The position numbers and the translations under genes are program-made. This document shows positions 18,147 through 59,299 of a stretch of DNA of 64,000 bases, piece after piece. How positions within the stretch are numbered: the stretch's first letter is position 1; each line of letters opens with the position of its first letter. The notes beneath the pieces were generated by a model. That model did not search any database. It saw only the letters and a program-made list of their open reading frames with translations, and was not told the origin of the DNA. Source of the DNA: Mustelus asterias (taxonomy: Eukaryota); assembly GCF_964213995.1 (NCBI RefSeq), contig NC_135808.1, positions 50,158,001 to 50,222,000 of the forward strand, in the 5' to 3' direction.

Positions 18147-18185
18147 CACACTGACAGCTTCCAGTGCAGGAGCTGTACAAAAACC
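18147..18185 (-). promoter_or_regulatory. J 23-RSS, cluster 1
   Basis: CACACTG + 23 bp + ACAAAAACC as read on the plus strand. Confidence 0.95.
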
Positions 18186-48118: not shown

Positions 48119-48167
48119 ATGATTTCAGCCATCCAGCTGCTCTGGCCTCTGGCATTCTGCATCGCAG
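48119..48167 (+). CDS. IGKV: Ig kappa leader exon, cluster 2 (MISAIQLLWPLAFCIA)
   Basis: ACCATG start; G|GTACAA donor. Confidence 0.92.
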
Positions 48168-48353: not shown

Positions 48354-48651
48354 GTATCAGTGGAGACATCATCATGACCCAGTCTCCCCCGGTGCTGTCA
48401 GTGAGCCTGGGCCAGACCGCCACCATCACCTGTACAGCCAGTCAAGGCATTAGCAATGATTGTGACTGGTTTCAACAGCGAGAAGGACAGAAACCGGCTC
48501 TGCTGATCTATGATGCATCAAATCGATTCACAGGAATATCCAACCGATTCAGTGGGAGTCAATCTGGGACAAGATTCACCCTGACAATCAGCAATGTACA
48601 GAATGAGGATGTCGCTGATTATTATTGCATCCAACGTAATAGCTACCCCTA
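48354..48651 (+). CDS. IGKV: Ig kappa V exon, cluster 2
   Basis: DIIMTQSP...[18 protein letters not shown]...[14 protein letters not shown]; CAG acceptor, open frame. Confidence 0.96.
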
Positions 48652-48679
48652 CACAGTGATACAGAGCCTTACAAAAACC
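48652..48679 (+). promoter_or_regulatory. V 12-RSS, cluster 2 (perfect consensus)
   Basis: CACAGTG-ATACAGAGCCTT-ACAAAAACC. Confidence 0.97.
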
Positions 48680-48684
48680 CCAAC

Positions 48685-51600
48685 ACACACAGCACCACCT
48701 CCTGTACTGACACATCGCACAGTTTTATATAATATATAATAATGGACACACAATCCCACCTCCTGTACTGACACATCCCACAGTTTTATATAATATATAA
48801 TAATGGACACACAGTCCCACCTCCTGTACTGACACATCTCACAGTTTTATATAATATATAATAATGGACACACAGCACCACTTCCTGTACTGACACATCC
48901 CACAGTTTTATATAATATATAATAATGGACACACAGTCCCACCTCCTGTACTGACAGATCCCACAGTTTTATATAATATATAATAATGGACACACAGTCC
49001 CACCTCCTGTACTGACACATCCCACAGTTTTATATAATATATAATAATGGACACACAGCACCACCTCCTGTACTGACACATCCCACAGTTTTATATAATA
49101 TATAATAATGGACACACAGTCCCACCTCCTGTACTGACACATCCCACAGTTTTATATAATATATAATAATGGACACACAGTCCCACCTCCTGTACTGACA
49201 CATTCCACAGTTTTATATAATATATAATAATGGACACACAGTCCCACCTCCTGTACTGACACATCCCACAGTTTTATATAATATATAATAATGGACACAC
49301 AGTCCCACCTCCTGTACTGACACATCCCACAGTTTTATATAATATATAATAATGGACACACAGTCCCACCTCCTGTACTGACACATCCCACAGTTTTATA
49401 TAATATATAATAATGGACACACAGTCCCACCTCCTGTACTGACACATCCCACAGTTTTATATAATATATAATAATGGACACACAGTCCCACCTCCTGTAC
49501 TGACACATCCCACAGTTTTATATAATATATAATAATGGACACACAGTCCCACCTCCTGTACTGACACATCCCACAGTTTTATATAATATATAATAATGGA
49601 CACACAGTCCCACCTCCTGGACTGACACATCCCACTGTTTTATATAACATATAATCATGGACACACAGCACCACCTCCTGTACTGACACATCCCACAGTT
49701 TTATATAATATATAATAATGGACACACAGTCCCACCTCCTGTACTGACACATCCCACATTTTTATATAATATATAATAATGGACACACAGTCCCACCTCC
49801 TGTACTGACACATCCCACAGTTTTATATAATATATAATAATGGACACACAGCCCCACCTCCTGTACTGACACATTCCACAGTTTTATATCATATATAATA
49901 ATGGACACACAGTCCCACCTCCTGTACTGACACATCCCACAGTTTTATATAATATATAATAATGGACACACAGTCCCACCTCCTGTACTGACACATCCCA
50001 CAGTTTTATATAATATATAATAATGGACACACAGTCCCACCTCCTGTACTGACACATCCCACAGTTTTATATAATATATAATAATGGACACACAGTCCCA
50101 CCTCCTGTACTGACACATCCCACAGTTTTATATAATATATAATAATGGACACACAGTCCCACCTCCTGTACTGACACATCCCACAGTTTTATATAATATA
50201 TAATAATGGACACACAGTCCCACCTCCTGTACTGACACATCCCACAGTTTTATATAATATATAATAATGGACACACAGTCCCACCTCCTGTACTGACACA
50301 TCCCACAGTTTTATATAATATATAATAATGGACACACAGCACCACCTCCTGTACTGACACATCCCACAGTTTTATATAACATATAATCATGGACACACAG
50401 TCCCACCTCCTGTACTGACACATCCCACAGTTTTATATAATATATAATAATGGACACACAGTCCCACCTCCTGTACTGACACATCCCACAGTTTTATATA
50501 ATATATAATAATGAACACACAGTCCCACCTCCTGTACTGACACATCCCACAGTTTTATATAATATATAATAATGGACACACAGCACCTCCTCCTGTACTG
50601 ACACATCCCACAGTTTTATATAATATATAATAATGGACACACAGTCCCACCTCCTGTACTGACACATCCCACAGTTTTATATAATATATAATAATGAACA
50701 CACAGTCCCACCTCCTGTACTGACACATCCCACAGTTTTATATAATATATAATAATGGACACACAGTCCCACCTCCTGTACTGACACATCCCACAGTTTT
50801 ATATAATATATAATAATGGACACACAGCCCCACCTCCTGTACTGACACATTCCACAGTTTTATATCATATATAATAATGGACACACAGTCCCACCTCCTG
50901 TACTGACACATCCCACAGTTTTATATAATATATAATAATGGACACACAGTCCCACCTCCTGTACTGACACATCCCACAGTTTTATATAATATATAATAAT
51001 GGACACACAGTCCCACCTCCTGTACTGACACATCCCACAGTTTTATATAATATATAATAATGGACACACAGTCCCACCTCCTGTACTGACACATCCCACA
51101 GTTTTATATAATATATAATAATGGACACACAGTCCCACCTCCTGTACTGACACATCCCACAGTTTTATATAATATATAATAATGGACACACAGTCCCACC
51201 TCCTGTACTGACACATCCCACAGTTTTATATAATATATAATAATGGACACACAGTCCCACCTCCTGTACTGACACATCCCACAGTTTTATATAATATATA
51301 ATAATGGACACACAGCACCACCTCCTGTACTGACACATCCCACAGTTTTATATAACATATAATCATGGACACACAGTCCCACCTCCTGTACTGACACATC
51401 CCACAGTTTTATATAATATATAATAATGGACACACAGCACCACCTCCTGTACTGACACATCCCACAGTTTTATATAATATATAATAATGGACACACAGTC
51501 CCACCTCCTGTACTGACACATCCCACAGTTTTATATAATATATAATAATGGACACACAGCACCTCCTCCTGTACTGACACATCCCACAGTTTTATATAAT

Positions 51601-52280
51601 ATATAATAATGGACACACAGTCCCACCTCCTGTACTGACACATCCCACAGTTTTATATAATATATAATAATGAACACACAGTCCCACCTCCTGTACTGAC
51701 ACATCCCACAGTTTTATATAATATATAATAATGGACACACAGCACCTCCTCCTGTACTGACACATCCCACAGTTTTATATCATATATAATAATGGACACA
51801 CAGTCCCACCTCCTGTACTGACACATCCCACAGTTTTATATAATATATAATAATGGACACACAGCACCACCTCCTGTACTGACACATCCCACAGTTTTAT
51901 ATAATATATAATAATGGACACACAGTCCCACCTCCTGTACTGACACATCCCACAGTTTTATATAATATATAATAATGGACACACAGCACCACCTCCTGTA
52001 CTGACACATCCCACAGTTTTATATCATATATAATAATGGACACACAGTCCCACCTCCTGTACTGACACATCCCACAGTTTTATATAATATATAATAATGG
52101 ACACACAGTCCCACCTCCTGTACTGACACATCCCACAGTTTTATATAATATATAATAATGGACACACAGTCCCACCTCCTGTACTGACACATCCCACAGT
52201 TTTATATAATATATAATAATGGACACACAGTCCCACCTCCTGTACTGACACATCCCACAGTTTTATTTAATATATAATAA
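48685..52280 (+). repeat. 61-bp minisatellite, ~59 copies, between V and J RSS
   Basis: Period 61; variants GTCCC/GCACC, ATC/ATA, TGG/TGA. Confidence 0.97.
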
Positions 52281-52609: not shown

Positions 52610-52648
52610 GGTTTTTGTACAGCTCCTGCACTAGAAGCTGTCAGTGTG
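52610..52648 (+). promoter_or_regulatory. J 23-RSS, cluster 2
   Basis: GGTTTTTGT-23bp-CAGTGTG. Confidence 0.95.
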
Positions 52649-52683
52649 CCTTACGTTCGGTAAAGGAACCAAACTCAGACTGA
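52649..52683 (+). CDS. IGKJ: Ig kappa J segment, cluster 2 (LTFGKGTKLRL)
   Basis: FGKG motif; A|GTAAGT donor; identical to J1. Confidence 0.95.
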
Positions 52684-57195: not shown

Positions 57196-58970
57196 AATGA
57201 TGTGGACAATTCATAACCAGGCAATTTTCCACATTGCCAAGTTGATGCCAGTGTTGTACCTGCACTGGTACCTTTGTGATCTGGATTTGGCAGGACTGCA
57301 GAGCTTTGATCTGATCCATTGTTTGTGGGATGGTTTAGCTCTGTCTGTCACTTGCTGCTTCTGCTGTTTGGCACACAGTCCAGTGTTGTAGCTTCACCAG
57401 GTTAACACCTCATTTTTCAGTATGTCTGCTGTTGCTCCTGCCATGTCCTCCTGCACTCTTCATTGAACTGAAAGCAGCAGAGAATCCACAGAAATGGAAT
57501 GATGCTTCAAATCCCACTCCTGAGACGGTCATGGCAGATGCTATAGAAATGTAATTCTGTCTTTGAGCTTGGGGATTCCTGATCCTTGCCCATTGTCCAC
57601 ACACTCGCAGCCTCCAGGGTTCATGGGGGCATTCGGAACAGTGACCTTTACTGATCCCTGGACACTGGGACTAATTCTAGCCTCACCCTTAAACTCAGCC
57701 CAGTGCTGTGCGGTAAGGTTTGAAATGAAATTTAGAAGCTTCTACACTGACAGCCAATCAGAATGCTGTGTGAACTGTGTTGATCCAAGTCTGCTGCAAT
57801 GTTCTGGGATAAAGTTCTCCTGATCTGTGTGTGATCTGAGGTTTGTTGAAGCTCAACCTGTTTCCCCCAGACAGACTGAACAATAATTCCAGCTTCCTGA
57901 CTGGTTAACAGTCTCTTAAAGGGACACTGTGTCTTTAAATACTCTCACTATTAACCATTTCAGTGCTGAATTTGTAGTCACCTTCATTACAAATGTTTTA
58001 GTCACATTGCAAAATGATTCAACCAGCTTCAAATCAAACCTTTACCCCAGACACTGAACTACTTTGAAATCCAACTTGTCACTTTCCCTCGGACCCCATC
58101 AGCTTTTAATTTTAAACAATGGTACAGCATTATCCGTCCTCCAGTCCTCCCACACCACACCTGTAGCCAGAGAGGATTGGGAAATAATGGTCAGAGTCTC
58201 TGCTTTTTCTTCCCTTGCTTCCCTTCGCATCCTGGGATACATTTCACCCGGGCCTGGGAATTTTTCCACTTTCAAAGATGATAAACACATTAATACCTCC
58301 TCTCTCACTATCATTATCCAATTAATTATTTCACAATCTCTCTCCTCCTGAACTACAATGTCAGCTTTGTCCCTCTCATTTGTGATATCTAATGTAAATT
58401 GTTCGTTCAGAACCATCTCTGTGCCTTCCCCCTCTGCACACAAGTTACCTTGTTGCTCTCTAACCTGCCCTATTCATTCCTTAGTTATCCTCTTTGCAAT
58501 GTCCCACGCTATTGCTTTGTTTGAATGTATTTGTTCTGAACTCTATCTCCAGCTCGAATATCCTCCCACTGCTCTGACACTGATTTACCTTCAAGTCGCT
58601 GTTTCCGGTTCATTTTGCCAAATTCCAGTTGAGTGAAATTGGCCTTTTCCTAATTTAAAACTTTTACACTTGATCGATCTTTCCTCTTTTCCATAACTAC
58701 TCTAAATCGTTAACTTTATGATGATCATTATTACCCAAATGTTCCCCCACTCATACACCTTCCAGCTACCCAGATTTGTTCTCTAAAATTACCCCAAACT
58801 GCCCCTTCTCTTGTTGGGATTGTTCCGTCCTGGTTAAAACAGTTCCCTGGAATAGATTGTCGGAATTGTGCAATGTTGAAACATTGACACTGATTTGATC
58901 CCAGTTTATATTCGGGAAGTTGAAAACCCTGAAAATGACAGTGATTAAAATTCCTTCTCTTCTCTTTCAG

Positions 58971-59299
58971 CCCGTGAGAATTCACAACCCACGCTGACCC
59001 TGCTGCCCCCCTCCCCGGAGGAGGTCAAGACCAAGGGCACTGCCACCCTGGTGTGCCTTGCCGATCACTTCTATCCCGATGAGGTGGAGGTGAAGTGGAA
59101 GAAGGACGGTGCAGCCATTTCCAACGGGATTCAGACCAGCAACTACCTGCGAGCTTCAGACAACACCTACAGCGTCAGCAGCCTGCTGACCCTCTCTGGC
59201 TCCGACTGGGAGTCCAACGCCCGCTTCTCCTGTGCCCTCACCCACGTGAGCCTCTCCTCGCCCCTCAGCAAGAGCGTCAGGAGATCAGAATGTGCCTAG
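58971..59299 (+). CDS. IGKC: Ig kappa constant exon, cluster 2
   Basis: TCTCTTTCAG acceptor; RENSQPTLTLLPPSPEEVKTKGTATLVCLADHFYP...RRSECA*; in phase with the J donor. Confidence 0.95.

Follow-up and report, generated by a model that had tools for sequence, protein, structure and literature searches.

A 61-bp minisatellite with weak RSS-like unit junctions in the kappa light-chain clusters of Mustelus asterias, and a probable germline signal joint between two clusters

Minisatellite VNTRs in which variant repeats are interspersed are well known, and the array described here resembles them in its head-to-tail 61-bp units (~97% alike), its mixture of variants and its rapid change in length. It differs from them in occupying 21 paralogous places in one locus and in being lost somatically on V-J joining. 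The closest described immunoglobulin system is nurse shark NS4 (kappa, type III), which, in the available text of its description, shares with the clusters studied here the cluster layout, the classical recombination signal sequences (RSSs) and a reported leader intron length of 186 bp (PMC2193156). That text does not contain the word “repeat”, and its V-J intervals, ~500 bp in length and 502-524 bp in the main group, contrast with 628-3997 bp here. The non-repeat part of our intervals is comparable at ~445 bp, and an interval with a single unit would also be ~445 bp; the nurse shark intervals therefore leave little room for a long array, which counts in favor of neutrality (PMC2193156). Cryptic RSSs known to be cut by RAG (PMC12711392, PMC9723617) are like the array in having a CAC start and a competent heptamer, as well as a non-canonical nonamer near predicted functional ones and an AT-rich context (PMC12711392). 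The array differs from them in being tandem, in offering a 23-spacer only, with no 12/23 partner at J, and in having lost this spacing in a relative. Finally, germline products of RAG in cartilaginous fish include joined VJ and VDJ genes and one hybrid joint (PMC2193153, as far as the available text goes); these are site-specific events at exact RSS borders in cluster-type loci, as is the joint we describe in cluster L035. In L035, however, two clusters are linked, and it is the signal joint that was retained and not the coding joint.

The window analyzed here is a 64,000-nucleotide stretch of M. asterias DNA. The features of its cluster 2, and the corresponding array of its cluster 1, are as follows.

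48119..48167, plus strand: leader exon of kappa-type cluster 2; leader and V spliced together give an open frame
48354..48651, plus strand: V exon with an open frame, whose translation has antibody light-chain V domains as its top PDB matches
48652..48679, plus strand: V 12-RSS, heptamer and nonamer both consensus
48685..52280, plus strand: 61-bp VNTR of 59 units, with a weak 23-spacer RSS-like site across every unit junction
48718..48756, plus strand: best single cryptic 23-RSS of the window array, with nonamer ACACAATCC (7/9)
52610..52648, minus strand: J 23-RSS, convergent with the V RSS, with heptamer CACACTG ending at 52648 and a consensus nonamer
52649..52683, plus strand: J segment, open, LTFGKGTKLRL
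58970..59299, plus strand: C exon with an open frame, present on the contig in 22 copies of 96-100% identity
18697..19242, minus strand: VNTR of cluster 1, 9 units of the identical array type, with the V 12-RSS from 19275 and the J 23-RSS heptamer at 18147

The leader intron of cluster 2 is 186 bp long. We class the cluster as Ig kappa (NS4, type III) from its V 12-RSS, J 23-RSS, light-chain V and leader intron, because this intron matches that of NS4 in length and the V matches light chains; the label also draws on framework-1 likeness. A search of the C exon against PDB named no isotype. Extra cysteines are seen in the V genes at window positions 48354-48651 and in L044 (CDR1 “NDCDW”), and L034 and L048 each have one in CDR3.

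TRF assigned the window array a period of 61, 59.0 copies and 97% matches, and 35 of the 59 units equal the consensus. As in other VNTRs, the units run head to tail with variant repeats among them, and copy number varies from 4 to 59 among paralogues. Several features that had been read from the sequence alone were confirmed. The array starts beside the V nonamer, 5 bp after it; it contains the proposed ~118 heptamer-like words (CACAGTC 44, CACAGCA 12, CACAGTT 57 and 5 rarer variants, making 118); these words stand in one orientation, with 303 CAC on the plus strand and 0 on the minus strand; and CACAGTT is followed after 23 bp by ACACAGTCC at 43 of 59 sites. CAC occupies heptamer positions 1-3 in all 59 sites, and the array ends ~330 bp before the convergent J 23-RSS. 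We rejected the one-strand polarity of CAC as a signal, as GTG is absent in 60% of shuffles and at least five CAC occur in 6.7%.

How closely does the unit resemble an RSS? Ten CAC/spacer registers were scored, and CACAGTT-23-ACACAGTCC alone stands out. With thresholds that were chosen after the unit had been seen, a match of 6/7 plus 6/9 arises in 125 of 20,000 dinucleotide shuffles and in 43 of 8,598 real 61-mers of the locus made tandem (~0.5-0.6%), so that the likeness is above chance and counts against a neutral passenger. The consensus heptamer, found in 8 units of other clusters, counts in the same direction. The SARP-seq assay reportedly uses a consensus nonamer and mammalian RAG. In the available part of its table, the heptamer+2 word of the array site, CACAGTTTT, has a mean of 0.066%, where the natural J word has 0.097% and the V word 1.14%; CACAGTCCC and CACAGCACC have 0.012% and 0.005%, and two further array words are absent from the table (PMC9723617). 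Judged by these values, the array heptamer and the natural J heptamer would be of similar competence, which also counts against neutrality.

ACACAGTCC is not among the listed rows of the top 1000 of 262,144 predicted nonamers, a table that comprises only the top 0.4%, so that absence from it is no proof of lack of function, and four of the six one-step neighbors of ACACAGTCC that were looked up are present in it (PMC12711392). ACACAATCC is row 408 of the same table and occurs once in all arrays, as a private variant. In position 4, ACACAGTCC departs from the non-canonical functional motif NNNRWRWCT given in the available text (PMC12711392), and its position 9 is the canonical C. The same source links nucleosome repulsion to the use of cryptic RSSs (PMC12711392), and the AT-rich spacer of the array site may repel nucleosomes, a point against neutrality. 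Past the final unit, where no junction follows, the word in the nonamer position matches at 4/9 or 5/9 in each of the 22 arrays. Since the 23-spacer look-alike thus exists across junctions only, it is likely a by-product of duplication. The unit junction is therefore a plausible weak cryptic 23-RSS, which speaks for the sequence-only reading of the unit as RSS-like.

These spacings restrict the partners with which an array site could be joined. Under the 12/23 rule, a 23-site cannot pair with a 23-RSS. A joint between an array 23-site and the J 23-RSS is therefore barred, and the partner would be the V 12-RSS. Joining of the array to J had been suggested, and this is not supported, as the nonamer-like words at spacer 12 from the five CAC words of the unit reach 3/9 at most, and 0 of 5 of them are among the listed top-1000 rows (PMC12711392). 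Because the V 12-RSS and the array site share the same orientation, their recombination would produce an inversion that leaves V without an RSS and kills the cluster.

A genome search found 22 nearly identical C exons between 50.17 and 51.09 Mb of C8, and the locus holds 18 V exons and 21 clusters with a J. The array census, in which the whole genome was probed with the 24-base core of the unit at no more than 1 mismatch, found the array in all 21 J-bearing clusters. All 299 matches in the genome lie inside these clusters and a control pattern gave 0, so that the unit is confined to kappa V-J intervals; because it is kappa-only, the finding that the sequence-only reading had named as damaging to its view, a satellite common at non-Ig loci, is not what the genome contains. 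No inverted unit was found within any of the 21 clusters; this and the restriction to the kappa locus count for neutrality. The arrays contain 9, 59, 4, 9.8, 32, 5, 4+16, 20, 8, 9.8, 4, 13.8, 4, 15, 4, 4, 9, 21, 12, 19 and 21 units, the entry 4+16 being L035, and adjoin the V nonamer in all 18 V-bearing clusters. The minimum of 4 units per cluster in this assembly counts against a neutral passenger. All 18 V genes keep their RSS, and no germline-joined kappa VJ was found among them.

Array length changes between clusters whose flanks have barely diverged. Cluster 1 of the window (W1) and L037 have 9 and 8 units with 3 flank differences in 3,900, L036 and L042 have 20 and 15 units with 24 in 3,900, and L032 and L040 have 9.8 and 13.8 units with 20 in 3,900, each of which counts for neutrality; copy number is equal in two near-identical pairs, L032/L038 and L039/L041. 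A GA-rich repeat without RSS likeness varies in the same interval, spanning 111-475 bp in 11 of 19 non-window clusters measured, and this also counts for neutrality. So do eight unjoined intervals of other isotypes, which we take to be three IgM-like, two IgNAR-like, two sigma-like and one other light chain, and which contain a two-copy 26-bp repeat at most and no array; the sample also included one partial IgH locus that is uninformative for the array. As a separate observation, a minus-strand 12-RSS-like site (7/7, 7/9) stands ~440 bp upstream of the V RSS in L169 and L170, upstream of both sigma-like V exons.

Three kappa clusters have an unusual structure. In L032, L038 and L040 (position ~1040-1120), the V and its 12-RSS are absent, so that the leader intron runs directly into an array unit; J and C are intact, and the fusion was one event, duplicated later. 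We considered and rejected a RAG origin of this fusion, as its intron side has no RSS word and the junction shows 1-2 bp of microhomology. The array side does begin at a CAC, but this word is present five times in every unit.

RSS-like satellites are not restricted to the kappa locus. A 37-bp satellite at L159-L161 (G000:C6:115021925-115042149, C6:115.02-115.04 Mb) has ~479 plus 14 copies, or ~490 units, and contains 408 sites with at least 6/7 and at least 7/9 matches at spacer 23, a near-consensus 23-RSS. Its heptamer+2 word is row 6 of the SARP-seq table (PMC9723617), and its nonamer is row 31 of the top 1000 predicted nonamers (PMC12711392), as given in the available parts of these sources. 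A motif scan across 50 kb there detected neither V nor J. RSS-like satellites can therefore arise without Ig genes, which counts for neutrality of the kappa array. The 37-bp satellite is itself a candidate RAG off-target hotspot, being by sequence far more RSS-like than the kappa array. A CA-rich satellite, L177 (G000:C31:30000-39999), is rich in RSS-like words spaced by 12 and 22 bp, and no Ig gene was seen in it. Genome pattern searches for genuine RSSs returned mostly chance and satellite matches.

From these sequence comparisons we infer that the array is a neutral VNTR passenger, a new, locus-private VNTR of a familiar type, and we put the probability of this reading at roughly 65%. In an ancestor shared by several related sharks, one 61-bp stretch beside the V RSS would have been duplicated in tandem; the unit would then have spread with duplication of whole clusters, and arrays would now grow and shrink by slippage or unequal exchange. 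When V joins J, the array would leave on the excision circle. On rare occasions an array site may be cut together with the V 12-RSS, a leak that is likely too small for selection.

An improbable alternative is that the array is a decoy tuned by copy number, in which the unit junctions act as weak 23-RSSs that compete with J for the V 12-RSS; inversional joins would kill the cluster, so that long arrays would lower the productive rate and aid light-chain exclusion. The above-chance RSS match, the competent heptamer, a nonamer one step from predicted functional ones and the restriction of the array to kappa are what such a decoy would lead one to expect, and the 58 junctions, though each is weak, could have a summed effect. 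The competing J, however, has a consensus nonamer, whereas ACACAGTCC is not among the listed top-1000 rows (PMC12711392), and the variants show no mark of constraint: in 245 interior 61-bp units from 20 of the 21 clusters (end, merged and odd-length units dropped), the 7 heptamer positions carry 5 distinct variant alleles, the 9 nonamer positions carry 7 and the remaining 45 positions carry 26, with no depletion in heptamer or nonamer, a result based on 38 alleles and hence of little power. The array is present in all three organisms compared (A, B and D), which counts against neutrality, and contigs of organisms A and B keep the 61-bp unit. Organism D, a related species for which we had 63 raw reads, ~4% of one run, shows a 2-bp loss per unit in 6 of 6, 7 of 7 and 7 of 9 reads, which produces a 21-bp spacer, and 3 of its reads skip 183 bp, leaving one unit; the 23-bp spacer is thus not kept across relatives. 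A conserved decoy or exclusion role for the array is not supported, given this shortened spacer and one-unit form, the undepleted variants, a copy number of 4-59 and the lack of an array in the eight intervals sampled from other isotypes with multiple clusters. Joints into the array were not seen in the shallow DNA-type contig sets or in ~4% of one other-species raw run, where missing joints, whether into the array or across the signal joint described below, prove nothing. Array contigs have a depth ~10-fold that of the flanks in X2, a depth that does not give copy number, and RNA-type runs contained 0.05-0.24 of the words.

Two further explanations seem to us quite improbable. The array could be a chromatin or distance element, in which AT-rich, nucleosome-poor units or the V-J distance itself (0.63-4.0 kb) alter access to the V RSS without being cut. 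A TA-rich run makes up nearly half of the unit, and the array lies next to the V nonamer in every V-bearing cluster, and nucleosome repulsion matters for RSS use (PMC12711392, available text); yet copy number ranges over 15-fold, the other sampled isotypes lack the array, and nurse shark intervals measure only ~500 bp (PMC2193156, available text). Alternatively, the unit could be a decayed duplicate of the V end and its 12-RSS that inherited its RSS likeness, an origin that would be compatible with neutrality. The distance from the V heptamer to the first CACAGTT, 66 bp, is nearly one period, and a 5/9 nonamer-like word stands at spacer 11. Local alignment of the unit to 15 V-end plus RSS sequences nevertheless remained at shuffle level (P 0.13-0.99), as did the RSS alone (P 0.76), and an alignment to the J RSS on one strand (P 0.025) was lost after 18 tests, so that the suggested origin from a duplicated V end and RSS is not borne out. 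As a neutral VNTR the array would add only modestly to shark Ig anatomy, but it gives cluster-specific markers and a natural series of 4-59 weak 23-RSS sites, at V-J distances of 0.6-4 kb, for studies of cluster usage and light-chain exclusion.

Cluster L035 of the locus contains two intervals placed in tandem.

C8:50394400-50404399, minus strand: cluster L035, ~180 kb beyond the window
L035:8340-8417 (G000:C8:50402778/50402777), minus strand: signal joint, a blunt 23/12 heptamer-to-heptamer fusion

The order of elements in L035 is V-12RSS, 628 bp with 4 units, 23RSS|12RSS, 1425 bp with 16 units, and 23RSS-J. The joint consists of one 12-RSS and one 23-RSS, both unmutated, whose heptamers are fused without a base lost or added, one base fitting either side, and the structure is single-copy. 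It is the only match in the genome to a 23/12 joint pattern, which misses joints with insertions or variant nonamers. We compared flank ancestry among six minus-strand clusters and found that it switches at the joint, with low divergence from the sister cluster upstream and high divergence downstream. In the upstream 16 kb, L035 differs from L039 at 30 of 16,000 positions (0.2%) and from L041 at 51 of 15,999, whereas over 16 kb past J the count against L039 rises to 437 of 15,691 (2.8%); L039 and L041, compared downstream as a control, differ at 29 of 15,999. The first unit past the joint is already unlike that of L039, and no close match to the J intron of L035 is found among the other 20, the nearest differing at 13 of 1,299 and 91 of 2,252.

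We consider this structure quite probably a germline inter-cluster signal joint made by RAG, a zero-length proto-D that would testify to recent long-range RAG activity in germ cells. RAG would have brought together two clusters of the same orientation, the upstream one contributing its J 23-RSS and the downstream one its V 12-RSS; the coding joint and intervening DNA would leave on a circle, and the signal joint would stay on the chromosome. Exchange between chromatids would yield an identical V-12/23|12/23-J product. Between V and J, the joint presents an RSS on both sides, 12/23-compatible with both, and L035 could conceivably be assembled by two successive joins, each with its own end processing, a D-like use that we hold to be doubtful. 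Because there are zero coding bases between its heptamers, we do not class the joint as a D segment.

It is unlikely that the joint is instead a somatic lymphocyte product that entered the assembly, or that trans-V(D)J recombination put a signal circle back at this place. The unmutated RSSs and the single-copy structure count for this view, and circle reinsertion is documented in mammals (PMC1820826, available text). The joint is bridged by 0 of 4 organism-A contig sets (33 contigs) and no such joint was seen in the 4 runs compared at the sister cluster L039; these contig sets, however, are shallow (14-47 summed over ~20 clusters) and have rare variants dropped, and organism A may belong to another species. 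An assembler would seldom follow one read against many. Had a circle been reinserted, the sequence past J should revert to that of the sister, but over 30 kb downstream of J no 2-kb bin falls below ~1% (lowest 21 of 2,000, L035 versus L039), and the border between RSS and J is unprocessed; we therefore disfavor reinsertion. Germline joining itself has precedent in this genome, as germline-joined genes were found in 5 of the 6 C13 light-chain clusters that were sampled. Somatic joining between clusters is rare in nurse shark IgH, where joining takes place within clusters with 1 possible exception in 97 (PMC2435157, available text).

If the L035 joint is germline, as we favor, the within-cluster-only rule of somatic IgH joining would not bind germ cells. 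Lewis and Wu (2000) derived D segments from inter-cluster signal joints with junctional insertions, a route (Fig. 2B ii) that the available text presents as postulated, with shark evidence for classes i and iii only (PMC2193153); the L035 joint would be the predicted intermediate of this route. A natural signal joint makes the proto-D route testable, through recutting by RAG and through D-like two-step junctions in transcripts. The L035 joint is a variant of known germline RAG products. In the literature searched, chiefly papers from outside the subscription journals in which much shark Ig work appears and without genome-paper supplements, we found no report of the 61-bp array or of a signal joint in the germline of any shark light-chain locus.

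Other irregularities of the kappa locus concern single clusters or their arrangement. An orphan C exon, L051 (G000:C8:50977568-50977894), has no V or J within 50 kb around it, and the leader intron of one cluster contains an insertion of a ~400-bp repeat (L048:150-560). At G000:C8:50.17-50.74 Mb, the clusters strictly alternate in orientation, in minus-plus pairs, and whole pairs have been recently duplicated; this alternation would permit inversional joining between clusters.
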